This document shows, piece by piece, positions 1,324 to 15,809 of a DNA stretch of 15,809 nt (positions within the stretch are counted from its first letter, which is position 1; every line of letters starts with the position of its first letter). The notes under the pieces are model-generated. The model had not been told where the DNA came from. It was given only the letters and a program-made list of their open reading frames with translations, and searched no databases. A program made the translations under genes and the position numbers. This stretch comes from Paraspadella gotoi (Eukaryota; Animalia; Chaetognatha), in the NCBI GenBank assembly GCA_051294375.1, contig JBJCIZ010000458.1:1-15809 (forward strand). Reading direction: 5' to 3'.

Positions 1324-4089
1324 ATGGAAAGTTTTTTCGATGAAGATAAGAATGTTAGTGAACGTGGTATTCGAGTTTTTGTTTATCAATTAAATAAAGA
1401 GTTGATCGAATTTATTAATAAGTATAAAAGAGCCCAAGAAGGTCCGTCTATTGAAACTGTTAATGTTGTTGAAGGTGCCCGTGATCACGTTCGTAGATTG
1501 CATACTGTTTTAACTAAGTTTATTAAAAGGCACCCTGAGTTTGAATCTAAAAAGGTTTTTAGTATTCTAAGTAAGACCGAGAGTCAATCTGTGCCGTATA
1601 TTTTAAATAAATATCCGCCGTTACCCGTTCCGTCGCGATCCGTCCGTTCGAATATGGACAATAATTTTGAACAGTCAGGGGGAAGGGATGAAGGGAATGA
1701 AACTGAAAGTGATCTTATTGTCGTAGAAGGTCCCGTTGTTTTGTCTTCCCAGTTAGAACCCAATCCTGTTGCACCATCGGCCCAGGCCGATGATATTTCG
1801 CCCGATCTCGATCCTCTTCCTCCTCCTCCTCGTATTGATTTAACACGAGAACGATCTTCTGCTGTCGAAGCAGCAGAAAACGCGCCAGTTCGGAGTCGGT
1901 CCGTGTTATCGACGCTTGCTAACGTTTCTGCGCATTTATCCGCTCTGGGAAGAAGTCGACATTCTTCGCCAAATGAGACGGTAGTGTCTGAAGTATCACC
2001 TGATGCTCGTCCGGAAAATCTATCTCAAAGGTTAGTAGACAAAGAACGAACTCGTAGAATTCGACGTTTAGAAATTGAACGAAAAAAGGCTCATTTAGAA
2101 AAGTTGATTAGAGAAATCGAAATTGCTGAAATTGAAGAAGACGCAGAAAACGAAATGACTTTGAATGAAAGGCAATGTAAAGGAAATGAAACTAATTTGA
2201 ATGCTTCGACCAGATCAAGGAATGGCGGCGCCGCGCGGAGAGCTTACAATGAATCCGTCTACGATCGAGTTTGCGGAGTAGGAACGACTTCGACGACAAA
2301 CGTGATGACCACGGTGAGTTGCGAAAAGGGTGGGTCTGGCAGTTTATTAAAGGGATCGTCACCGTTATCGAAGATCAGTCCAAAAGGTTTGACTGTTAAT
2401 ACGAATGATGCTAATTCGACGCCCGCACTGGTTCCATCAGTCGTCCCGATTTCGAGTCGTTCACGTTTAGAAACTGTGCCTAAGATCGTTGCTCGTAGTT
2501 CACCACAAACTGAACAGATTTTGTCTGGGGGGGGAGAGATTGAGATACCAAATGAATCCGTCCCGGCTCCAGTCATTCGACAACCGCCGAGAATGTCAAG
2601 GAGTGTTCCTAATGTGTTGAATCGTATCTCTGCACAAAATCAAAATGTTGTAGGACAGGGAAAGGTTGAAAACATGATTCCCGCGAATTTTTTGGGCAAT
2701 CCATTTAGTGCCTACCCAGCATTTAATCCATATTTTGCCTACCCACAGTGGTCGACTCCTTCACCAATGCATTTCCCAAACCAAGCACAATCGCCACAGA
2801 CTTCTGTTGCAAAGGTTAGCGTCTCACCCAATACACCGTCGGTGGCGCCAGCTGTTTCAAATCGTAATTCTCCGGTCCATAATGCAAATTCCACTCGCGA
2901 GAGGCCGTGTCCAAATTCTATTGTGGGAGAAACTTTGGGTGATTTTGGTGAGGATAGGGACAAGTTGACACAACTCTGCACTATCCAGATCCAGCAGCAA
3001 GCATTAAGCATGATGAGGCAACGTAGGCCCAAATTAAAATTTAATGGGCGTGACAAAAGGGTCGATTTTGAATCTCAACTGAACTTGTTTAATTCTCTGG
3101 TCAATATTGCTGGAGTGACTGACCAAATGATGATGAATGAATGTAAGGAATATTTTGATGGAGATGCCGCTATAATCGTGTCCCAACATGAAGCCTCTAG
3201 CGATTTCACTGATGCTCTAAAGAAAGTTAGGAAGGCTTTAAAGATAGAATTTGGTAGAAAAACGTATAATGCCCATCAAATGTTGGAAGAGTTGCTAAAG
3301 GGTCCTAAGATTTCTGATAAAGATTTTACTGGGGCTAGAACGTTTGTTCTTGAGATGGAAAAGTTTCATGTGAGGGCTAAGGAGACTGGTAGGGAGTTGA
3401 CTTTTTCAACTCAGGAGACATATAAGGAAATTATCTCTAAGAAGTTGCCTTTTCTGGCTGCTTGGGTGGCAAGAAGAATGGTTGATAAGGAATGGGAAAA
3501 GATGAAAAGTGATGATGATGATGGATTTTTTGACCTTGAAATGAAATTCGAAGATTTTATTGATTTTGTGAAAAAATCTGTGAAAATCAATGAGAGAAAG
3601 TCAGCCTTGTTGGGAAGTCGAGATGCTGTAACGACAAGTGCACCAATTTCTACCACACAATCCAAACCGACGAACACCTTTCAACGAAATCCAATTCGTT
3701 TTGCCGCAACTGCTGTTTCTTCTAACCCACGCACCCAACCCGTCTTGTCAACTCGTACATCTGGAGCTGCAAAAGTAACGAATATTGCTGCAGCATCTTC
3801 TTTTCCAAATCCAAATTCCAACCCAAACAACCATGCACCGCGAAATGCATCAACCTCGAAATGCCGATTTTGTGAGCAAAATCATCACACTGGCAATTGT
3901 AGTGATTATTTGGCGCTTGATCATGAAGCTAAGGTGACATGGTTAAGAGAAAAGGCTTTGTGTTTTTTGTGCTTTGGTCATGGACATGTTGCTAAGAATT
4001 GTCTTCGGATGTTGGGTTGTTCAAAATGTAGTGGGAGGCATCATGTATCACTTCATCAGGTGACTACCACCCAGGTTGAATCATCCTGA
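1324..4089 (+). CDS. gag: Gag, 921 aa: long S/P-rich N-terminal half, BEL capsid-like region (from KFNG..., about 3037), three C-terminal Cys/His knuckles
   Basis: Uninterrupted ORF. CRFCEQNHHTGNC (from 3862), CFLCFGHGHVAKNC (from 3961) and CSKCSGRHHVSLH (4018-4056) give the Cx2Cx3Hx4C / Cx2Cx4Hx4C / Cx2Cx3Hx4H triplet characteristic of BEL/Pao Gag. Confidence 0.93.
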   Translation: MESFFDEDKNVSERGIRVFVYQLNKELIEFINKYKRAQEGPSIETVNVVEGARDHVRRLHTVLTKFIKRHPEFESKKVFSILSKTESQSVPYILNKYPPLPVPSRSVRSNMDNNFEQSGGRDEGNETESDLIVVEGPVVLSSQLEPNPVAPSAQADDISPDLDPLPPPPRIDLTRERSSAVEAAENAPVRSRSVLSTLANVSAHLSALGRSRHSSPNETVVSEVSPDARPENLSQRLVDKERTRRIRRLEIERKKAHLEKLIREIEIAEIEEDAENEMTLNERQCKGNETNLNASTRSRNGGAARRAYNESVYDRVCGVGTTSTTNVMTTVSCEKGGSGSLLKGSSPLSKISPKGLTVNTNDANSTPALVPSVVPISSRSRLETVPKIVARSSPQTEQILSGGGEIEIPNESVPAPVIRQPPRMSRSVPNVLNRISAQNQNVVGQGKVENMIPANFLGNPFSAYPAFNPYFAYPQWSTPSPMHFPNQAQSPQTSVAKVSVSPNTPSVAPAVSNRNSPVHNANSTRERPCPNSIVGETLGDFGEDRDKLTQLCTIQIQQQALSMMRQRRPKLKFNGRDKRVDFESQLNLFNSLVNIAGVTDQMMMNECKEYFDGDAAIIVSQHEASSDFTDALKKVRKALKIEFGRKTYNAHQMLEELLKGPKISDKDFTGARTFVLEMEKFHVRAKETGRELTFSTQETYKEIISKKLPFLAAWVARRMVDKEWEKMKSDDDDGFFDLEMKFEDFIDFVKKSVKINERKSALLGSRDAVTTSAPISTTQSKPTNTFQRNPIRFAATAVSSNPRTQPVLSTRTSGAAKVTNIAAASSFPNPNSNPNNHAPRNASTSKCRFCEQNHHTGNCSDYLALDHEAKVTWLREKALCFLCFGHGHVAKNCLRMLGCSKCSGRHHVSLHQVTTTQVESS

Positions 4090-4178
4090 CTCGCGGCAGC
4101 GTATGCGACGACGGGGGCGTTTCGACCAATTGTGCCATTGGTTGTTTCCAACGGTCTGAGACGCGTCGTCACATACGC
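4087..4178 (+). promoter_or_regulatory. Putative stop-codon readthrough signal: UGA-C, 9-nt spacer, extended stem-loop
   Basis: TGA at 4087-4089 is followed by C. Pairings read by eye: 4099-4105 GCGTATG/CATACGC 4172-4178; 4107-4112 GACGAC/GTCGTC 4165-4170; 4117-4123 GCGTTTC/GAGACGC 4158-4164 (one G-U); 4124-4127 GACC/GGTC 4153-4156. Confidence 0.75.
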
Positions 4179-7100
4179 AATGATGGATAGCGGCGCTACA
4201 AGATCCGCTGTATCATCTAGAATAGTCTGTGAATTAGGTTTAGAGCCATATACATTATTTACAAATCTCTCTACATATAATACTGTTTCCCAAGCTTGGC
4301 GAGACTTCGTTGATTTAAAAATCTCAACTCTTGATGAATCTTTTTCTAAAGAAGTGAATAAAGTGCTTGTGGGTGATATATTGACCACAGAAAGTGATAA
4401 GCCATGTCGTAATGAGGATATTTCTGATTATGAGTATATGAATGGAGTTATTTTTGATGAGTTAGATCATGAGGATGTTGAGTTAATTCTTGATGCTCGT
4501 TTAGCCTCAACATGGGTAGGGGGCGAAACCAGAGTTGGTCCTGAAGGGTATCCCATAGCTCTTAAGACAAGATTTGGTTGGACGTTAGTGGGAGCCAGTG
4601 AAAATGAGACTAAGGATCAGATTAGTTGTTGTTCTAGTATCTCAGAATTTGATAAGCTTGAGTTTATGATTGCCTCTATGTTCCGTCATGATTTTATCCT
4701 CAAGGGAGACGAACGTTATCCCTCAGAAGTTCAACATGCTTCTTGTCAGGATTCGTATGCAATTGAGCAGTTGGAACAACAGACATATTTTAATGAGGAG
4801 ACCGGCCATTACGTGGCTCCGTCACCTTGGAAGAAGGGCAGGAGTAAAACTGCTGAGTTGTTTGAACCACTGTATAAAGACGTGGCAGAAAATGCAAAAA
4901 GCAGAGCTAAGAAAACAGCCAATAAGATGAGAAAGGATCCAGTTCTTAAGGAAGGTGTTTTTAAGACTATGAAAGAGACTGTTGAGATGGGTCATGCTAG
5001 AAAGGTAGTTGAAGATCATCCACCTAAAGGAATCCCTGAATATTTTGCTCCTGTCCATGTAGTGACGCGACCGGACAAACCCGGAAAATTTCGGATTTGT
5101 CAGGATGCGGCTACTAAGGTGAAAGGCTCAAGTCTTAATGATTACTTAATCCCTGGTCCAGATAATTTGACGCCTTTGATAGGAATTTTATTAAAATTTA
5201 GAAGGAAAAGAGTGACGTTGGCAGGGGATATAAAATTATTTTTTCATCAAATAGAGTTACATCCTAATGACGTGGCTGCCTTTAGGTATTATTGGTATAG
5301 TGATGAAACCATGAAGGTTTTAGAAAAACATGAGCCCTTGGTTCACGTATTTGGTGGGGCAGGAAGCCCAGGGGTTGCTAATTTTATCCTTCAATACCAT
5401 GCAAAAGCAAATAAAGATGTGTTCTCACCTGATGTTTTAATGGCTTTATATTTAAAATTTTATGTTGATGATTTTATTGATTCGCTTGATGGAGTTAAGC
5501 AGGCGCGAAAAATGAGAATAGATATTATTGAAGCCTTAAAAAAGGGAGGTTTTGATATTGGGAAGTGGAAAAGTTCTGACGAACGTGCTTTACTTGATTT
5601 TTCAGTTGACGGAGAAGACGATCCTTGCCACGACTCTATCGCCACCCTGATCGACTCCGCTTCTCCAGATAACGCCGAGGATCTCACGGATGATCTTGAG
5701 AGAGTAATCGACAATGCCCTCCCTGATAATCCCACCCTTGATGAGCAAGATAACAAGGTATTGGGAGTTGGATATAATTTTCGTCGTGATATGTTTTTTG
5801 TAAGAATTTCTAAAAAATATGAAAAGGAGGCAAAGACTCGTCGTGATATCTTAAGTTTAGTCTCTTCCATGTTTGACCCCATGGGTCTTATTTCGCCTTT
5901 TATTTTAAAGGGGCGATGCTTTTTTCAAAAGGCGACTGATTTAAAACTAGAATGGGATGAGATGTTGCCTGAGGATTTGGAAAAGGATTTTAATTTTTGG
6001 CGTGTAAGCATTTTTAAACTTAAAAAATTGTTAATACCAAGATGGACCGCCGTGTTAGGTTTAAATGATTTTATTGCAAAACTGATAGTTTTTTGTGATG
6101 CTTCATCTGAGGGTTACGGCATGGCCGCGTATATTAAAAAAGAAAGTAAATGTGGAAAATTAAATCACGTTTGTCTATTATTTGCTAAGGCTCATGTTGT
6201 CCCTCTTAAGATGCAAAGAATGATTATCCCTGACCAGTTAGATCACGGAGATTCAATGCCCCGCCTTGAGCTGAATGCGGCAAGACTTGGTGCTCAGATG
6301 CGTGATATGATAGAGAGAGAATCTGGGGAAGTGTTTGAAACAGTTTTCATGATGACTGATTCTTTGACAGTATTGAGATGGATTCATGATTGGTGTAAAC
6401 GTTTCAAAACCTTTGAAAACTTTAGATTAAAAACAATTCGTTTACTTTCCAGGCCTACTGAATGGCGACATGTTCCGGGTGAGGAGAATCCGGCGGATCT
6501 TGCGAGCAGAGGCATCGACGCCGACGACGAGAAGAGTTGGTCTCGTTTTCATAAAGGACCCAGCTGGCTGAAGCAAGCTGAATCCGAGTGGCCTATGACT
6601 TCCGATCCAAACAAAGTCAAAAAGAAAAAAGGCAAAGTAGATCTTAAGGCCATTGACGAAGACAGCGCCTTCTCTCCGTCTGAGTTGGTTCTCTTAGGCG
6701 CTACTCGTGAGCATCCCGTAATGCCGGACTCTAAATTATCTACAGGTTGGGCTTTAAAAGTTACAAATAAACTGGAAAATTGGATAATGAAAGTTCGCCG
6801 AATTGCTTACTTTATAAATGCGGTTTTACGTTTTGTAAAATTTTTGGGAAAAAAGAAAAAAGCTGATGATAGTTTGTTTAAAAAAATTCGTTTGACGGCG
6901 CCCGAATTTTTAAATGCTGAAAAAATATTAATTCGGTCGGTCCAAAGATCACATTTTGAAAAAGAGATATTTTCTTTAATTAAACTAGGAGTTTCTTCCG
7001 CCGACGCTCACAAAGAGCTCCGCACACAAAGGTCTAAACTTGTTTCTTTGAGTCCCTTTGTCGATGAGATGGGTATTTTAAGGACTGGTGGTCGTTTAGT

Positions 7101-8283
7101 TAATTCTAGCTGTCTTAATTTTGATTCTAAATTTCCTATCATCCTTCCTAAAGACGACGAAGTGGTTAAATCTTTAATACGTTATGAACATGAAAAATTG
7201 TATCATGCTGGCCCAGCGGCGACTTACCATTCCGTACGTCAACGATTTACTATTTTAGGCGGACGAAGTGCGATTGATATTGTTGTCAGACGGTGTGTTA
7301 AATGTCAAAAATTATTTAAAAATAATTTAAGCCAGAAGATGGCTAATCTCCCGCCGGAGAGAGTAAATCTTTCGGTTCCATTTAAAAATTCTGGAATAGA
7401 TTGTTTTGGACCTTTTCAAATTCGTCTTGCTGGGAGGGGTCTGAACAAAAAATTTGTCTTGTTAATATGTTGTCTCGCTACACGTGCAGTAGTTTTTGAA
7501 CCATTAAAGGACATGTCGGCTCCGTCAGTCCTTAACGCATTAATTCGAGTAAAAAATTCTTTTCCAGGCATGGAATCGCTTTTCTCTGACAACGGCACTA
7601 ATTTCAAAGGTGCTGCAAACGATTTAAAGTCCCAACTTCAGGCGATTTGTAATGACGAAAAATTAAGCGAGGGAATCGCGGTGAGAGGAATCTCTTGGAA
7701 TTTCGGACCTCCGTATACGCCTCACGCAGGTGGGATTTGGGAACGCCTTGTACGTTCGGCAAAGAAACATTTAAAAGCAGTCATTCCAGATAATCTTGAT
7801 TATGATACCTTTAATACTATTTTAAGTGAAGTTGCCGGGATTCTTAACAGACGGCCTATTACGTTTGAGGCATCAGACCCTTTGGAACCTATTGTTTTAT
7901 CTCCACTTAATTTACTTTATCCTTATTTATATGCTCCTAGTTCTCTTACACTTTTACCACATGCTCCATCTGAAGGAGACATAATGAAGTCTACTTGGCG
8001 AAAAGTTCGTGAAGTAGCTGACGAGTTTTGGTTCCGATGGCGTGATGAATATTTGCCTTCCCTTCAGGCGCGAACGAAGTGGTTCCAATCGTCACCGGAT
8101 CTTCCAATCGGCGAAGTCGTTCTCATTGTTGACCCCACCGCGCCGAGAGACAGATGGCGCACAGGAATCGTTGTGGAAACGTCTGGAGAGGGTCCCCACT
8201 CGCGAGAGGCAATTGTTAAATTGCCTGACGGTCGAAAAATTCGTCGTCATTACCGTTCGCTTGTTTCGCTAGAACTGAATTAA
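4090..8283 (+). CDS. pol: Pol polyprotein (aspartic protease, reverse transcriptase, RNase H, integrase); probably translated as a Gag-Pol readthrough fusion 1324-8283 (2319 aa)
   Basis: The frame is open from immediately after the gag TGA. Motifs: protease DSG at 4186; RT LAGDIKLFF and YVDD at 5461; RNase H CDAS (D at 6097), PRLEL, TDS, NPAD; integrase H(7189)-H(7204)-C(7294)xxC and D(7399)-D(7588)-E(7741). The ORF-track GTG start at 4132 is unlikely to be real. Confidence 0.96.
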   Translation, partial: LAAAYATTGAFRPIVPLVVSNGLRRVVTYAMMDSGATRSAVSSRIVCELGLEPYTLFTNLSTYNTVSQAWRDFVDLKISTLDESFSKEVNKVLVGDILTTESDKPCRNEDISDYEYMNGVIFDELDHEDVELILDARLASTWVGGETRVGPEGYPIALKTRFGWTLVGASENETKDQISCCSSISEFDKLEFMIASMFRHDFILKGDERYPSEVQHASCQDSYAIEQLEQQTYFNEETGHYVAPSPWKKGRSKTAELFEPLYKDVAENAKSRAKKTANKMRKDPVLKEGVFKTMKETVEMGHARKVVEDHPPKGIPEYFAPVHVVTRPDKPGKFRICQDAATKVKGSSLNDYLIPGPDNLTPLIGILLKFRRKRVTLAGDIKLFFHQIELHPNDVAAFRYYWYSDETMKVLEKHEPLVHVFGGAGSPGVANFILQYHAKANKDVFSPDVLMALYLKFYVDDFIDSLDGVKQARKMRIDIIEALKKGGFDIGKWKSSDERALLDFSVDGEDDPCHDSIATLIDSASPDNAEDLTDDLERVIDNALPDNPTLDEQDNKVLGVGYNFRRDMFFVRISKKYEKEAKTRRDILSLVSSMFDPMGLISPFILKGRCFFQKATDLKLEWDEMLPEDLEKDFNFWRVSIFKLKKLLIPRWTAVLGLNDFIAKLIVFCDASSEGYGMAAYIKKESKCGKLNHVCLLFAKAHVVPLKMQRMIIPDQLDHGDSMPRLELNAARLGAQMRDMIERESGEVFETVFMMTDSLTVLRWIHDWCKRFKTFENFRLKTIRLLSRPTEWRHVPGEENPADLASRGIDADDEKSWSRFHKGPSWLKQAESEWPMTSDPNKVKKKKGKVDLKAIDEDSAFSPSELVLLGATREHPVMPDSKLSTGWALKVTNKLENWIMKVRRIAYFINAVLRFVKFLGKKKKADDSLFKKIRLTAPEFLNAEKILIRSVQRSHFEKEIFSLIKLGVSSADAHKELRTQRSKLVSLSPFVDEMGILRTGGRLVNSSCLNFDSKFPIILPKDDEVVKSLIRYEHEKLYHAGPAATYHSVRQRFTILGGRSAIDIVVRRCVKCQKLFKNNLSQKMANLPPERVNLSVPFKNSGIDCFGPFQIRLAGRGLNKKFVLLICCLATRAVVFEPLKDMSAPSVLNALIRVKNSFPGMESLFSDNGTNFKGAANDLKSQLQAICNDEKLSEGIAVRGISWNFGPPYTPHAGGIWERLVRSAKKHLKAVIPDNLDYDTFNTILSEVAGILNRRPITFEASDPLEPIVLSPLNLLYPYLYAPSSLTLLPHAPSEGDIMKSTWRKVREVADEFWFRWRDEYLPSLQARTKWFQSSPDLPIGEVVLIVDPTAPRDRWRTGIVVETSGEGPHSREAIVKLPDGRKIRRHYRSLVSLELN

Positions 8284-8709
8284 TTGAAAGTTTGGAAATG
8301 ACAACCAAACTTAGTTTGATAGAAACTTTCTATATTTGAAAGTTATTAAGAAACCAAATGGTTATTTAAATTGATTTTTTCTCTGAGTTATTCTGAGTTA
8401 AAAAATTAGTTTGCTATTTATTTTTCATTGAATTTACCTGTCCTTACTAAAATCGCCGTTCCGCTTTCATTTATATAGACAGATTTTAATTGAAACGATA
8501 ATAACTTCTCATTGAGAATACTTTGTTTGATCAACAAAGTTAGTTGAATTTGAAAGCCTATGTTGAAGCTAGTTGGATTGAATTTTTTTTATATGAATTT
8601 TTTTTTTAGTTTCAAATTTTTATTTTTTACTGCCGACGCACATTAATATTTATTTGTGGCACTTCGTCCTTGGTTATTCGTCGTTACGTTCTGCCGATCG
8701 ATCATTAAA

Positions 8710-8955
8710 ATGAGCCTTTCTCGTGAATTCGTTGAGAAGTTCTTTGCTCCGTCGGAAAGGGAAAAAAGAGTTTTCGTCTTGGGACTCGCGACGCGTAAGA
8801 GAACACGGTCAACTCCAGAGCTCAATAGGATCATGGAAGATATCAATGAAACGGAAAACGTGATGGTGGGCGTACCTTTACATGACCTTTGGATGCTCGA
8901 GCGAAAATTGAAGATTCAGTCCCAAGAGTTGGAAATAACAAGACTAAAATCGTAA
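8710..8955 (+). CDS. Small accessory ORF A, 81 aa, unknown function (MSLSREFVEKFF...)
   Basis: More GC-rich island between AT-rich spacers. Start context aaaATG, and it is the first ATG after the T-tract/AG at 8608-8609. AATAAA follows at 9027 and 9068. Confidence 0.65.
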   Translation: MSLSREFVEKFFAPSEREKRVFVLGLATRKRTRSTPELNRIMEDINETENVMVGVPLHDLWMLERKLKIQSQELEITRLKS

Positions 8956-9173
8956 TGGTTTTCGTCGTCGTCGTGGATGTTTGTTTAGTGTTTATGTTTC
9001 ATTTGATTCAAGTTTACAAATAACCTAATAAACAAGAATGAAAAGTAAAAAATCTATAATCAGCAGAAATAAAATTGTGTTTGTTTTTTTTTTCGAAAAT
9101 AATAATATATATTTGTTGTTGAACTTAATCGTTTCAGTTTGATTGCTAACTATTTTTAACTATTTTTTAAATC

Positions 9174-9256
9174 CGTGATCCGCTGCTCCATCTCACCGTC
9201 CTTTCTCTCATTACGTGATCCGCTGCTCCATCTCACCGTTCTTTCTCTCATTACGT
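9174..9256. repeat. Tandem duplication of a 40-bp unit (2 copies, 39/40 identical)
   Basis: CGTGATCCGCTGCTCCATCTCACCGT(C/T)CTTTCTCTCATTA at 9174-9213 and 9214-9253, followed by CGT. Confidence 0.97.
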
Positions 9257-9332
9257 TATACGCTGCACCGTTTGCAGTCCACTGCGCTGTTTCGCGATTC
9301 CCCGTTTCGGTACGCGATCAGTTTCATTGAAG

Positions 9333-9605
9333 ATGGCGGAACCCAAGAACAGCGGGCTGCATCGTTATCTGGTTTCTTTGGCGGTTCCAGATCACGCCAA
9401 ACAAAGGTTTCATGAGTTATACTCGCGGGTCATTTTGGCTAAGGAAAAAGAACTCTTTGAGATGATGGAGAGGATGGGAATTTCAAGAACAAGCTCCGGT
9501 CAGGTGCCTGCTGAATTTGTGCCGCTGTTTAAAGACTGGGAGCGTAAAGCCGAAGACGAACTCAATCACGAGATCGCGGAGTTCCTTCGGGATTTGGAGA
9601 AATGA
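9333..9605 (+). CDS. Small accessory ORF B, 90 aa, charged helical protein of unknown function (MAEPKNSG...)
   Basis: Start context aagATGg, first ATG after TTTCAG at 9137. Protein-like amphipathic composition, bounded by AT-rich spacers. Confidence 0.7.
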   Translation: MAEPKNSGLHRYLVSLAVPDHAKQRFHELYSRVILAKEKELFEMMERMGISRTSSGQVPAEFVPLFKDWERKAEDELNHEIAEFLRDLEK

Positions 9606-9731
9606 AGACGACGGAACATTGCATCTATTTGAACTGTTTTTACTGAGTACTATTTTTTAGGTTTAGTTAAAAATCAGTTGACCTAACGTGCCGTGGAATG
9701 ATTTATTTTTTAGTTTTTCTGGTCATCAGTC

Positions 9732-9929
9732 ATGTCGTCCAGCAATTTTCAAGTTGATCGAGATGGTGCTGAGGACGATAATGCCTCCGCAGCATTTGCA
9801 GTTTATATTGAACCTGGTGAAACATTGTCTTCTCAAGAAATCTTACAGTTGTTTCAATCTATTAGAAGGGGGATTTTGATCGCGCGAGAGGCAGAAAGGC
9901 AGCGAATTATTGATCAAAATGAAGAATAG
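9732..9929 (+). CDS. Small accessory ORF C, 65 aa, acidic, unknown function
   Basis: First ATG after TTTTTTAG (AG 9712-9713). The ORF fills the island and AT-rich sequence resumes right after the stop. Confidence 0.6.
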   Translation: MSSSNFQVDRDGAEDDNASAAFAVYIEPGETLSSQEILQLFQSIRRGILIAREAERQRIIDQNEE

Positions 9930-10218
9930 CTCTTTATATAAAGATTTATTGGTGCCTTTTATTATTTAGTGGTTCTATTCATCCACGGATAATATTTGAG
10001 TAATTTGAAAAGAGACTACTTATTTATCTGGCCTACAGATTAAATTATTAGGTCAATTATCTCGAACTTTAATTTTGAAATATTTGATTTAAATTTCATG
10101 TTCTTAATGAGGAGTTAATTATTTGTATTGTTAAACATGTAATATTTATTTCTTAAGCCTCCGTTGCAATCTACTTTGTTATTCGTAGTCTTAGTTAAGT
10201 AATAGTAACGTGATTGCC

Positions 10219-10470
10219 ATGGCTCAACGATTTGAGAGATTTTTTGAGTCCCTGGGAGAGGACGAGGCTGTGAGGCAGCTATTTGAAGAACGACGACTTG
10301 AAGCAAATGCTCAAGTCATTTCCGGCTTGGTTTATTCGCGAGAGGTTGAGTTCCAAGAAAATTACCTGTTACCTGAGATAGGCCCTCATCACGTATCTAC
10401 AGATTCGGCTGACGAAGAATCGTTGTCAAGAGAGCCTACCAGCCCAAGGAGAATTCGACTTCACCAATAA
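10219..10470 (+). CDS. Small accessory ORF D, 83 aa, unknown function (MAQRFERFF...)
   Basis: Strong Kozak context gccATGg, first ATG after TTTATTTCTTAAG (AG 10156-10157). Flanks are AT-rich. Confidence 0.7.
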   Translation: MAQRFERFFESLGEDEAVRQLFEERRLEANAQVISGLVYSREVEFQENYLLPEIGPHHVSTDSADEESLSREPTSPRRIRLHQ

Positions 10471-10542
10471 TTCATTCAAAATTTTGCATTGAATTTAATT
10501 TAGTATTTAAATTATTATTTTTTTTTTTTTTTTTTTTACAGT

Positions 10543-10629
10543 ATGAGTTCTTTAACTCCTAGAAAGCTGAATTTGTACTACCCGATTTATCACTTATTTC
10601 AGTTTGTTTTGTTTTCGCGAAGTTCATAA
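10543..10629 (+). CDS. Possible micro-ORF E, 28 aa (MSSLTPRKLNLYYPIYHLFQFVLFSRSS), or remnant of a longer gene
   Basis: ATG lies 1 nt after a strong acceptor-like site (T20-ACAG, AG 10540-10541). Too short for further support. Confidence 0.3.
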   Translation: MSSLTPRKLNLYYPIYHLFQFVLFSRSS

Positions 10630-11017
10630 CCAGTCGCATAATGCTACGTTTACCACTCTGATATTAATTTACATTAATTAGGCATAATCGTCGTCGTTTT
10701 TTCATTGGTCTCCTGCTCGGTTTTCTTGCGCTTGCCTGATCCTCTTCCTCTTCTCTCAGCTCCTCCTCATCCTCTTTTTGATCCTCCTCCTCTCTTTTTG
10801 CTCCTCTTCCTTTTTAAAAAACCAAGTTTGGGCACAAGCTTGTCAAGCTTTCATACGTTCACTTTATTCGAATCGTTTTCGTTTCGGTTAATTGAAATAA
10901 TAAGTTGAATTTAATATATTTTTTTTATTCCTTTCCTCGACGTTATTTACATAATTGATATTTTATTAAGCAAAGATATTCCAAGTTTTTCCTGACGTAC
11001 CTCATCGGGCTTCAAAA

Positions 11018-11626
11018 ATGAATGACTCTGAACTTCTTGGCTGGGCTTTAAATCGAGCGAACGCAGCCGCTCTAAAAGTTCGTAACACCAAGGCCTTTCT
11101 GCAAGAAGCCACGAAGGCGATCGATGCGATTGACGAGAGCCTTACTGCTACTAGGAAAATACTCGACCTAGGCATCAAAAGAATTGAGACTCGTCAGGAG
11201 GTAAGCATTAAATTAGTTGAAATTATGGGTTATCTTGTTCATTTTTTATTTTTAACTAGTTTAAGGTTATTCATTAAGTTATTACTTTAGGTCATTCGTT
11301 CTGCTAATCAGTCGGGAAATTATCCTCCGTTAATTACGTTCGACGATGATGATACCCCTAAAGTTAAACGTGGTTCCGTCAAAATCATTCCGTTGATCAC
11401 CAAAACACGAAAACCCACAAGCAACTTGGTCATGCCGCGATCTCCTTCCGTGCCCAAGTTAGAGGAACCGTTTAATCCGATTCCGTCGCTTATGGGACAA
11501 AAGCCAAAAACTGGGAATCAACTCTCAGAGAGTAACCGTAACGAGTACGTCCGCTTGCCAAAGAAGGCAGTGAGGCAATATAACCATGCTCCAAGCTCTG
11601 CTGGCCAAATTAAGCCAGACGCTTAA
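11018..11626 (+). CDS. Spliced accessory gene F, 172 aa: join(11018..11200, 11291..11626); N-terminal helical domain plus P/K/S-rich tail
   Basis: Donor GAG|GTAAGC at 11201, AT-rich 90-nt intron, acceptor TTACTTTAG|G at 11290. Phase-0 splicing joins the two track ORFs (11018.. and 11393..11626) into one stop-free frame. Confidence 0.8.
11201..11290 (+). other. Spliceosomal GT-AG intron, 90 nt
   Basis: Near-consensus donor and acceptor, strongly T-rich body, and removal restores a continuous ORF. Confidence 0.8.
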
Positions 11627-11802
11627 TTCAGGACAAACATTAGACTTCGTTGTGTGTTTCGTTTAGTAATTAGATTGTACCATTGTCACTTTGATACATG
11701 ATATTATTTTTTGTTAGTGTTGTTTGCGATGTTTGCGTCTCACTACGTTTTTTTTTTTTTTTTTTCTTTTCTCAGTTTATATGTTAAAGTTGATATAAAC
11801 TA

Positions 11803-12144
11803 ATGACGGTCGTTGCCTCATTACGATTAGCACAGTGGAAAGTTGATCTCGCTACGGACATTGCGGTCAAAGCGGGAATCCAAATGAAGATCGCGCGGAC
11901 GGATGATGAGAAGATAATAGCAAAGATTGGGTTTGCAGAAGCTGTGAGAATGCTGCAGGAAGCTAGCACCATGGCAGCACAGTCCTTTAATGACGTTGCG
12001 CTTGAGGATGTTGACGAGGATGTCCAGCGTTTAGAGACAATACTGCGGGAAAGGATCGAAACGGGTCATCAAGCACTTGACGATGCGTTAGGCTGGTACG
12101 AGGAAATACCCGCACTGGAACCGCTCGACGATTACGAGTCGTAA
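11803..12144 (+). CDS. Small accessory ORF G, 113 aa, Ala-rich helical protein with acidic C-terminus; paralogue of ORF I
   Basis: Follows T18-CTTTTCTCAG (AG 11774-11775). Ungapped alignment to ORF I gives 15 identities in the first 55 aa. Confidence 0.8.
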   Translation: MTVVASLRLAQWKVDLATDIAVKAGIQMKIARTDDEKIIAKIGFAEAVRMLQEASTMAAQSFNDVALEDVDEDVQRLETILRERIETGHQALDDALGWYEEIPALEPLDDYES

Positions 12145-12365
12145 AACTTAATAGTTAACTTGTTTAATGCCCAGTTCGTCGCATATCTTGTTAAACATCA
12201 GTATGTAACATACCTTGCATTAATTTGTTTGCTTTGGTGGCCTATGTTTTCCATAATACTGAAAGTTGATAGCTATTAAATTTTTTTTTTATTAAGATTG
12301 ACGAAACGATTTGAAATATTTGAGAATTTAAATTATTTCGTTGTATTATCATTTGGTAAATAAAC

Positions 12366-12602
12366 ATGACTCATGAATATTTGGATCGCGCTATCAATAT
12401 TATTTTAAAGACTCAAGCGTCCCTGAGAACTAGCACTGACGAATGGACTCGTGCAGTTATTTTAGAAAAAGTTAACACTGCTCTTAAACTTTTAGAGACA
12501 GCACGAGATACAGCTAGTCATTGTCCCGAATGTCAAAAGCGCCCTCTTGTGCAGAATGTAACGTCTGATCCAGTCCTTGCCGAAAAGTTTTCTAATTTTT
12601 AA
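12366..12602 (+). CDS. Small accessory ORF H, 78 aa, helical protein with HCPEC motif; probable paralogue of ORF I
   Basis: Start context aacATG, first ATG after T10-ATTAAG (AG 12295-12296). LDRAINII matches ORF I VERAINSI. Confidence 0.72.
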   Translation: MTHEYLDRAINIILKTQASLRTSTDEWTRAVILEKVNTALKLLETARDTASHCPECQKRPLVQNVTSDPVLAEKFSNF

Positions 12603-12706
12603 ATTGTTTGTGAAAATTATTTGAATTTCTGTGAATGCTAGTGTACTGGAGATTTAAACAATTGGTTAAAAATTTAATATTTATTTTAAGGTTTTATAAA
12701 TTTATA

Positions 12707-13033
12707 ATGAATACCGCGACGGTCGTATCACTCGCTATTGAAAAGGTTGAGAGAGCAATCAATTCAATAATTGAAGCCAGGGGAAAGTTGCTTTCTGCCG
12801 TAACTCCTGAGGAGCAAGTCGCCACGACGACGGCAATTGACCGGGCGGAGAGATTGACTCACGAGGCATCAAAGATAATCATTTCCACGATGGCGACGAT
12901 CGATCCACACGACGAAAGACTGTTCGAGTTCTGGGCTTCTGGGAATCGTGTTGTCAAGAAGTTGAATCAGGAGAAAGCGTTATTAGACGAGATGGTCGAC
13001 TTAAACAAAGATCGCGACGATATGATTAATTAA
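12707..13033 (+). CDS. Small accessory ORF I, 108 aa, helical protein (MNTATVVSLAIEKVERAIN...)
   Basis: First ATG after TTTATTTTAAG (AG 12689-12690). This start puts it in exact register with ORFs F and G. The 24 upstream codons in the track are AT-rich spacer. Confidence 0.8.
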   Translation: MNTATVVSLAIEKVERAINSIIEARGKLLSAVTPEEQVATTTAIDRAERLTHEASKIIISTMATIDPHDERLFEFWASGNRVVKKLNQEKALLDEMVDLNKDRDDMIN

Positions 13034-13263
13034 AACTTTCTACTAATGTTTTATTTAAGAAAACTCTTTAATATTTTCTTGTTGATTGTTTAAATCTATT
13101 TTTATGAATTTACAATGTTAAATTAAAAATTGTTTAGGTCATTTTTTCATTAATAAGGCCTGAGGGGCAAACTGATAATAAAACAATTCTTGGCCGAAAC
13201 GCGCGGCGATTACTTTAATAATATTGCAGTGAACTTTTCTAAAGATTAACTCTGAGTGGCACC

Positions 13264-14688
13264 ATGAGCGTAATTACTCCCAACCGGTGACATACTTTTT
13301 GGAGGGCTCACAGAAGACGAGCGATTAATGTTTGACCCGGATGAGCTCATTTGGCCGGACAACAAATCTGTCACGGAGTCCGAGATCGATCCCAGTCCAC
13401 GAAGAGGTGAATCAAGAATCCTCGCCTGCAAGCAAGGTACTTTGTATTGAAATTAAATTAACATATTTTTGGGAGAATTAACTCGGCATTGATCTTGATA
13501 CGTTTTTTTTAGGCCTTTGCCGATCAATTTTTGAATGTTAATGGCCGAAGACGATGCGCCCACCGGAAGGGCGGCTGAAGATTTACAACTGAACCAATTG
13601 TCTATGGTACGGAGATGAACGCCTCTTTGCCCCATCTTTCGTCTGTTCACCAGAGAAACAACAGATGTACCGTAACATTCGACGTGGCGCGTGGGAACGG
13701 ATTGCGATGCGCCGTGTGGTGGACACACCAGCAGTTCTGCGGAGTTTATTGGTCTTATAAACTCTGGAGAAAGGCCTATGTACTTTATAAATCGCTCGTC
13801 GCGTTTTTCCTCGGGAACCGTCAATGCCCCTTACGATGCATCCGGTCGGGTCTTCAAATTTCGTTGTGGACAGAGTGACAGACGCAGAGGAAAGTCTCCA
13901 AATTTTGTTCACGTGGCCAAGACTTCTCATTCGAATTCGTCAACAGAGGTTCAATATGTGGGCCAGTCTCCAGAAAGGCCTGCACCTTCGAGAAAGTCTG
14001 AACAATCTTCTGCTTGCCAAACCTTTTGGATGATGTCTCTTGGAAAGAATTGGAGAAAAAGATTGGAAAGTTAAAGAAGAAGCGGTGAGACACGAAGCCA
14101 TTAATGGAGAACTAAAAGAAAGAAAACGCTAAGATTGAAAAGAATTACAATGAAGAAATACAACGTCGACTGGAGGCTGAAATGAAAATAGACGTCATAA
14201 GAAAGGATGCTGACCAAAGAATTGACAAATTACAAAGACTTTGGAGCAAAGCCTTCAGTAAAGAAAAGACCCGGGCAGACGAGCAGAGTTTTTACTTGAA
14301 AAGGAGAGGAAACAAGTCATCTCTCAAAGTGAATTAGAAAAGAATAAAATTATTCAAAGATCTCGGTTCACCATTGCATCGTTCAGTCAATTTTGAATCA
14401 CGAGAATCCGCTTTTGGTTGGTCTCAGTTTGGGGAACAAGCCGATGTCCTGCCTCGTGACGGAATTTCCAGATTCGCGACCTCTTCGTTCAGCTCGCAGT
14501 TGGTTCCCTTTCATCCGCCGCCAGGCCAGGAACACTTGATTCATACGCCAAAGTTTGGGCCGCCTCAGCCGCGCCGCTTGAGGGAGTCTACTCCTTCTCC
14601 GGGGGATACACCTCCTCCTCCACCTTCTCCTCTTTTTTCTCCCAAAAGGCATCTGTCTAAATTTCGTATCGTAAAGCGTAAAAAGTGA
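13264..14688 (+). pseudogene. Larger frameshift-disrupted gene (J): probable 76-nt intron 13437-13512, coiled-coil segment about 14030-14350, proline-rich C-terminus ending in a basic NLS-like tail
   Basis: accATG at 13264, AAG|GTACTT donor and T8-AG acceptor. Protein-like segments alternate between + frames: KELEKKIGKL / KEEAVRHEAINGELK / KENAKIEKNYNEEIQRRLEAEMK (open 14116-14337) / RAEFLLEKERK / ...PPPPPSPLFSPKRHLSKFRIVKRKK*. The exact structure cannot be resolved. Confidence 0.5.
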
Positions 14689-14998
14689 ATTATTACACAT
14701 TTACTTTTTGAAAAGTAATATTAATCTTATAGCGTGTTTTTAAACACAAACAATCAAATTAAAGTTAGAAAATCCTTAGTTAATAATTTTTTTGAGATTC
14801 GCGAGTAAACCAGTTGATAATAAGATTTAGTTTGATTGTTATCGATTTGAAGCAATGATATTGTTGCGAAAATTTGAATTTTTTTTTATTTTTATTTGGT
14901 TCAGCGCGCGACGCTGATAGGTCGTAGAAACGAGATTTTACACAATTTTTTATGGGAATTGAATTACTCTTTGATGGATTCGTTGGAGCCTTGTCGAT

Positions 14999-15038
14999 GC
15001 TCTCTCTTTCGCTCGCTCTCTTTCTCTCTTTCTCTCTC
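14999..15038. repeat. Degenerate (TC)n microsatellite / GAGA-like tract
   Basis: GCTCTCTCTTTCGCTCGCTCTCTTTCTCTCTTTCTCTCTC read directly. Confidence 0.85.
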
Positions 15039-15809
15039 AAAACTGAATTTTATTTGCGGAACGGGTTTTATTAGTAAATACGGCAGACAGATTGACTATA
15101 ATACATAAATTATTTCAAATCTTGATAAGAAACATAGTTTCTTAAATATTTATTTTGTGATACTTGCGTATGAATTCACGAAACCTCGGATATGAGGTTA
15201 AATATTATTTGAATAGTGAAAGTTAAAACTTTGTACTATCTGAAACAAAACTGAAACCTTCATAATAAGGTTATATTGAGCGAAATTATAAAAATTTCGG
15301 AATTGAAAGTTGTTATAACTTAGTTTCGTTTGAACTGCAGTCCTATATTGAACCACAAAGATAGGTGGTAAAATTATACGTGTGACGACACGTTTTCTGA
15401 ATCTCGGTGACGACTGGGATAATAATTTATCTGCCGATTATTACATTTATTATTAAAGATTGTGTCCCGGGCAACACGGTCAGTCATTTAAAATTGTTTG
15501 ACACTGGTTAGTGTTTAATAAAGATAAGAGATTAAGAAAATTAAAAATTAAATTATTGATTTCTCTATTATCTTTACGGAAAGCGAGTAAATTAGTAGTT
15601 CTTGTTGGATTGCTTTAATTTGGCGAGTTAAGTTGGTAGTTCTTAATTTTTTTAAGACATACGCAGTTTGATAATGTAAATAATGATTGAATTGGATGCC
15701 TTTACAATATTAGTAAAGCTTACGATTAATCAATTTATACGTAATGTTGATATTAGTATTTGATTACTCCAAGAATTTAATCTGTTGTTTGGATTATTAT
15801 TCACTAGTC

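Follow-up and report, generated by a model that had tools for sequence, protein, structure and literature searches.

Three adjacent small genes of Paraspadella gotoi, here called G, H and I, are on the reading towards which we lean old tandem duplicates in an accessory cassette of a BEL/Pao retrotransposon, probably encoding non-enzymatic binding proteins, and a fourth neighbouring gene, F, has no detectable kinship with them. All four lie in the window, by which we mean the whole 15,809-nucleotide stretch of DNA analysed. A sequence-only reading of this DNA had proposed a four-member paralogue family, leaving unnamed its setting in what is probably the 3' region of a BEL/Pao retrotransposon; shuffle and profile tests uphold that family for G, H and I and place F at chance level.

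The body of the window is recognisably a BEL/Pao LTR retrotransposon, because its pol carries a Pao RNase H, DUF5641, an integrase zinc finger and a reverse transcriptase (RT). The pol frame (4090..8283, plus strand) was annotated from Pfam and homologues as protease, RT, Pao RNase H, integrase and DUF5641, with Pfam matches to Peptidase_A17 (Pao RNase H, E=1e-30), DUF5641 (1.6e-17), Integrase_H2C2 (1.4e-8) and RVT_1 (3e-4); the protease match is weak (E=0.049), and the domain order fits BEL/Pao. Ahead of it lies a gag ORF of 921 aa (1324..4089, plus strand), whose translation has C-terminal Cys/His knuckles and ends at a TGA. A Pfam search with gag gave no match, and tblastn matched it to the gag regions of related BEL/Pao loci, among them L001 at E=1e-38.

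Gag and pol share a frame on the plus strand and meet at an in-frame TGA-CTC (4087..4092). L001 has TGA-CTG at the homologous spot, near its position 1043, with similar residues flanking it on both sides, and the gag-pol TGA is likely a read-through stop. Of the 67 closest pol matches, the majority stand alone as ORFs of about 1,400 aa. Because the TGA is conserved in L001 and stand-alone pol ORFs occur among the closest matches, the comparison suggests that stop read-through is clade-wide. Pol has 291 homologues, of which the nearest are proteins from metagenome assemblies at no more than 47% identity, the best value; identity to proteins of named animals (sea cucumber, amphioxus, barnacle and fish) is 30-34%. 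A tree made by a quick method, with 34 of the 120 listed matches beside the pol of the window, placed that pol within a clade of 22 rows (SH-aLRT 100) that contains no named protein. Pol had no match among viral contigs.

Self-BLAST of the window revealed no LTR-like long repeat, and thus the ends of the element, which possibly fall outside the window, are not visible in it; PBS and PPT motifs were likewise not found there. Far more variant contigs cover positions 1-1155 than cover the interior, long contigs begin at 1156 and two stop at 15799. These contig edges may be LTR edges or mark another repeat. The window and the run contigs disagree by many 1-3 nt indels near both ends (43-374 and 13097-14688), because of which we regard the window ends as probably the product of error-prone assembly or of a repeat-library consensus.

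Behind pol, in the interval 8284-13263, the plus strand has eight ATG-initiated ORFs of at least 65 aa and the minus strand has none; local shuffles gave an expectation of 1.2±1.1, with a maximum of five in 500 shuffles. The row begins about 430 nt past the pol stop, on the same strand and with no repeat in between. Taken from the ORF list, its first four members are orphans: A (81 aa, 8710..8955; Pfam and PHROG without a match), B (90 aa, 9333..9605; homologue search empty) and the acidic C (65 aa, 9732..9929) and D (83 aa, 10219..10470). Gene F follows, with a predicted Ala-rich exon 1 of 61 codons (11018..11200), a predicted 90-nt phase-0 GT..AG intron of 21% GC (11201..11290) and a predicted basic, Pro-rich exon 2, a 111-codon open frame in phase with exon 1 (11291..11626). 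Then come G (113 aa, 11803..12144), H (78 aa, 12366..12602) and I (108 aa, 12707..13033), all on the plus strand like A-D and F. The coordinates and letters that the sequence-only reading had given for F (start 11018), G, H and I proved right. Beyond I, a GC-richer, coding-like region on the plus strand (13264..14688) has a 76-nt GT..AG intron at 13437-13512 and frames that are broken in the window's letters.

The gene islands are 39-50% GC and the T-rich spacers between them mostly 19-36% GC, and a purine stands at -3 in eight of nine starts (the ninth being that at 13264) versus 56 of the 101 ATGs of the region. AG acceptors with strong pyrimidine tracts precede G (18/18) and H (14/18), that of G being a strong poly-T/AG acceptor 27 nt upstream of its ATG, and weaker ones precede the other genes. 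A single multi-exon gene with the spacers as introns is ruled out for G and H by in-frame stops 3 and 2 codons before their ATGs; an in-frame splice into gene I is possible. A to I contain no transmembrane stretch (maximum 19-residue hydropathy 0.31-0.98), the segment by which an env or a FAST/sORF2-like fusogen would be recognised. Pfam and PHROG searches gave no enzyme-domain match for any of the eight small genes and only weak matches otherwise (E of at least 0.019), and an Rfam search gave nothing at E<=0.5.

Several sequences beside the genes were also seen. The spacer ahead of gene B has two or three tandem 40-nt repeats (9163-9255). On the minus strand, 10672-10815 is free of stops and reads as an acidic run and then a basic cluster like a nuclear-localisation signal. 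No in-frame ATG lies upstream of the acidic run, and the stretch is possibly an antisense exon or low-complexity DNA. Two related, GC-rich BEL/Pao loci have plus-strand ORFs after pol (L007, 2582-4807, 741 aa; L021, 8024-10378, 784 aa), which are possibly other accessory genes.

Contigs of run X5 span from pol to gene C (8065-10038) and from G to past I (11809-15652), and the interval 8300-14800 is present, with 58-83% of sampled words, in nine runs of three studies of one organism; no RNA run was listed among those containing it. At 13437-13512, DNA contigs of three of four runs align on either side of the GT..AG interval and not across it. The interval is skipped or replaced in these contigs, possibly by loss of an intron via an RNA intermediate or by a diverged intron in a sister copy. 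The X5 contigs, which are of only guessed RNA status, are unspliced at both predicted introns, and no spliced form across the F intron was seen in the contigs.

Because no LTR pair, PBS or PPT was found in the window, membership of the cassette in the element is a matter of inference, and we consider that membership probable. Alternatively, the row could be a cluster of host genes, or what is left of a different endogenous virus or element, beside a truncated BEL/Pao copy. Besides the missing LTR pair, the intron-like features and the start contexts typical of ordinary genes would suit that account, as would the finding that no similar array lies downstream of pol in 19 listed of 79 related loci, which are mostly distant (about 30%) and of which the closest ends 158 nt after pol. 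We judge it unlikely, since the row stands on the same strand close behind the pol stop with no intervening repeat, one contig runs from pol to C, the organism also carries copies that have diverged or suffered deletion, as a repeat family would, and the searches for viral matches were empty.

Within the cassette, G, H and I are very probably paralogues. They were compared ungapped over 50 columns with BLOSUM62, counting G and I from residue 9 and H from residue 1, and scored 44 (G-I), 33 (H-I) and 22 (G-H) at 16-28% pairwise identity. The identities read off by eye were all present: exactly the 15 listed residues of 55 between G and I, and 10 of 50 between H and I at an offset of eight, including RAIN-x-I, L28, A47, L50 and A54. 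At the proposed heptad positions 10/17/24/31/47/54, G and I both have A,A,A,A,A,A and H has T,A,T,S,A,A. An S/T-x-x-E capping box lies at the turn in the same register in all three.

Chance similarity was assessed with several shuffles. Plain and heptad-keeping shuffles gave p<=7e-4 for all three pairs, and shuffles that keep the apolar/small/polar pattern gave p=0.006, 0.023 and 0.025, with p=2e-4 for the summed score. For each pair the best diagonal is the claimed register, the offsets are transitive, and the best diagonal stands well above the next (43 vs 16, 36 vs 9 and 25 vs 9). Unconstrained local alignment was marginal (p=0.016, 0.042 and 0.29). Because the register had first been picked by eye, we performed a leave-one-out test of two-sequence profiles over all offsets; G, H and I each gave p=1e-4 with the peak at the expected offset. 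The G-I and H-I scores were reached by none of 278,377 background windows, which are mostly from retroelement proteins and not from helical hairpins. These tests speak for H as a member, despite the doubt that it would fare no better than a generic heptad background; the same doubt over F was justified.

At the scale of a database the signal disappears. When two-sequence HMMs were run against 177,635 PDB sequences, H (9.6 bits) was outscored by 13 listed sequences and I (11.0 bits) by three; G was weaker, at 6.1 bits (E=100) and below the listing threshold. The PDB-size E-values of the left-out members, 8, 100 (G) and 3.5, are not significant database-wide, and hhalign of G+I against H gave E=0.002 with a probability of only 12.9%. 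Because the shuffles and profiles pass but the PDB-size E-values do not, the kinship as judged from sequence is convincing among about ten neighbouring genes and invisible in a database search. A six-frame scan of 342 window segments and 5,700 segments of 79 related loci found no fourth paralogue (best E=0.12). The G/H/I alignment drew 286 candidates from 5.8 billion proteins, none at E<=10, and the G/H/I profile had no match at E<=0.001 among 1.84 billion representatives; an Atlas search for I and G gave no usable match, and G, H and I had none among viral contigs.

Single-sequence AlphaFold models predict helices at 3-31, 34-64 and 71-107 in I (pLDDT 81.2) and at 3-30, 34-64 and 72-100 in G (pLDDT 77.5). 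The boundaries of the hairpin helices agree within one residue, and both models bear out the turn expected near residues 32-36. The proposed helical hairpin or bundle is seen in these models as far as the hairpin goes; the third helices differ both in sequence, with no similarity and a best ungapped score of 1, and in packing, which has opposite handedness in the two models. The G model fits PTS IIA 2wwv and Sso2 7q83 at rmsd 3.0 and 2.9, for which the I model has 9.3 and 8.7; the I model fits clockwise designed bundles, and the structural-match lists of the two have 2 of 50 entries in common. The opposite handedness may be a prediction ambiguity or a real difference. We take the homologous unit of G, H and I to be the hairpin, a predicted helix-turn-helix core of about 50 residues, to which a third helix and an acidic tail are added in G, a CxxC at 53-56 and a short tail in H, where the core starts eight residues later, and a third helix in I. 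Variable tails had been proposed for all four genes and are present in G, H and I; the Pro-rich tail of F is present only if the predicted 90-nt intron is spliced.

The fold itself is ordinary. The G model matches generic three-helix bundles (syntaxin Habc, PTS IIA, spectrin, BAG and MIT) at Z 9-12.6, the top example being 2dnx (Z 12.6, rmsd 3.6, 110 residues aligned); these scores are tied, lie in a range common for helical bundles and come with 4-17% identity, and the I model has the other handedness. Foldseek searches of PDB and BFVD with the models gave nothing at E<=0.001. The MIT three-helix domain is presumably one candidate likeness for the helical genes; MIT, Habc, BAG and spectrin had no Pfam match at E<=1, and their structural matches are tied with those of unrelated bundles.

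Such results are also what one would expect if G, H and I were unrelated Ala-rich helical hairpins, alike only through the heptad pattern of close packing: identities are low, database-scale E-values are not significant, the folds match many generic bundles with tied scores, and the third helices differ. This account is improbable, because the signal outlasts shuffles that keep the heptad and the residue pattern, the registers are transitive and well above the next diagonal, the genes adjoin, and few PDB sequences outscore a left-out member.

The paralogues have diverged far. Between them, third codon positions are identical at 10-16 of 50 sites, which is background level, and second positions at 23-28 of 50, which is higher; because of this difference the duplications are best read as old, with protein-level similarity being what persists. 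Second-position similarity in the DNA is also expected from a shared hydrophobic pattern, and protein-level constraint on G, H and I is plausible.

The same organism has a diverged sister copy, revealed by contigs 80-95% alike to the window that cover F exon 2, G and later genes. Among 40 listed of 139 rows, G has four synonymous and four non-synonymous changes (pN/pS 0.27, p=0.07) and F exon 2 has four and twelve (pN/pS 0.81, near neutral). None of these 24 listed changes (8 in G, 16 in F exon 2) is a stop. A control on gag, with three synonymous and five non-synonymous changes and one stop when changes were judged singly, is too small a sample. The changes in G lean synonymous without reaching significance and are compatible with constraint. 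At 80% identity no diverged contig was seen to cover H or F exon 1, and such a lack of cover proves nothing. A deletion variant in DNA lacks 12100..12768, losing H, the end of G and the start of I; its junction, 12099->12769, appears in contigs of X1, X2 and X7 (three of four runs, from two studies), where it is anchored on its shorter side by only 30 letters.

The deletion variant, which drops H and breaks G and I, the near-neutral ratio of F exon 2 and the non-significant signal in G would also fit genes that were duplicated in the element's past and persist as neutral cargo, still undecayed. We think this quite improbable, given that the frames are intact though third codon positions between the paralogues are at background level, and that the sister copy's listed changes in G and F include no stop.

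Gene F is likely a separate, intron-split gene, and on its sequence it is very improbable that it belongs with G, H and I. The six residues said to be identical between F and I are present, with R46 in addition, and F and H do share T-x-A-x-L. Over the common register, F scores -27, -16 and -16 against G, H and I (p 0.18-0.65). The G/H/I profile gives p=0.24 for F, hhalign E=0.41 and the two-sequence HMM about 0 bits. F has A,A,T,A,K,K at the six heptad positions and lacks the S/T-x-x-E capping box at the turn. The least probable account, that all four genes are paralogues co-assembling in one hetero-oligomeric helical complex, could cite the Ala of F at 10, 17 and 31, a best 45-residue F-I diagonal at offset 0 (score 16) and the absence from H of an obvious third helix, which it could borrow from a partner, but F is at chance in every test, has no turn cap and carries Lys at 47 and 54, and G and I are each predicted as a closed three-helix bundle alone.

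Returning to old duplicates within a BEL/Pao cassette, a mechanism can be sketched. Small non-enzymatic accessory proteins of retroelements usually act by binding proteins of the host or of the element, and for this reason we take G, H and I as soluble adaptors or decoys, a role we propose tentatively. The Ala and small-residue heptad would let the hairpin helices pack closely, duplication would diversify the binding partner, and the differing tails would lead to different partners, for which host germ-line silencing factors, RNA-export factors or the element's own particle are candidate targets. We infer a separate subgenomic RNA as the message for each gene; such RNAs would most likely arise when the T-rich AG sites ahead of the starts are used for splicing or trans-splicing. 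The unspliced RNA would be the form that is copied and packaged, and introns would therefore be kept. Packaging of unspliced RNA beside processed subgenomic RNAs would parallel Cer1 of C. elegans, where CERV comes from a spliced transcript and drives export of the unspliced one (PMC10309623). A more far-reaching and more doubtful picture is a complex BEL/Pao element of more than 15 kb, from a clade represented in metagenomes, with UGA read-through, about ten intron-bearing accessory genes and triplicated helical effectors diversified against or for host germ-line defences; its accessory genes would then outnumber those of complex retroviruses.

LTR retrotransposons that lack an envelope gene are commonly regarded as having just two genes. 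If our reading is true, duplication can enlarge the accessory repertoire of such elements in the way known from complex viruses, and G, H and I would be small, soluble candidate factors for counter-defence or RNA export encoded by a transposon. A further question it raises is how many of the downstream genes, some of them intron-bearing, are expressed and passed on by way of an RNA intermediate. What makes the case notable is the size of the orphan cassette more than the fold, and the paralogues number three, not four. Our literature search, which left most subscription papers and the repeat databases outside its range, turned up no BEL/Pao element described with a cassette this large.

BEL/Pao elements, as described in PMC3118150, have one or two ORFs and rarely env, with 15 kb as an upper bound for full-length elements. 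The present element resembles them in having Pao RNase H, DUF5641, RT and integrase in the usual order after gag, and differs from those described there in the in-frame TGA between gag and pol, in the stretch of more than 6 kb that follows pol and holds at least eight small orphan ORFs, and in having no env. It is well established that further ORFs can follow pol, among others in elements of plants and rotifers, and the cases described share with ours orphan ORFs behind pol and a long region from pol to the end (PMC6431247, PMC7264820, PMC5408684, PMC11963269). The additional ORFs described there number one or few, are env-like, enzymatic or antisense, and belong to Ty3/gypsy or other lineages, whereas the window has many short sense ORFs for soluble proteins, some with predicted introns. 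In a preprint, sORF1 and sORF2 of Drosophila MDG1-group elements are functional accessory proteins and sORF2 is a membrane protein (bioRxiv 10.1101/2025.03.14.642691); A to I, unlike sORF2, have no transmembrane stretch, and their likeness to CERV and the sORFs is one of description.

A parallel for the duplication is AciFLERV, a fish foamy-like endogenous retrovirus whose 3' region has tandem duplicate accessory genes, acc1a and acc1b, that lack any known domain (PMC5512871); related fish elements also have large, accessory-rich genomes (PMC5210030). Both AciFLERV and the present element thus have a tandemly duplicated orphan accessory gene in the 3' region of a large retroelement. AciFLERV is a retrovirus with env and eight ORFs in total, whose recent pair of about 250 aa matches at a BLASTp value of 1e-26 (PMC5512871), whereas here three copies of 78-113 aa, at 16-28% identity, lie in a BEL/Pao element.
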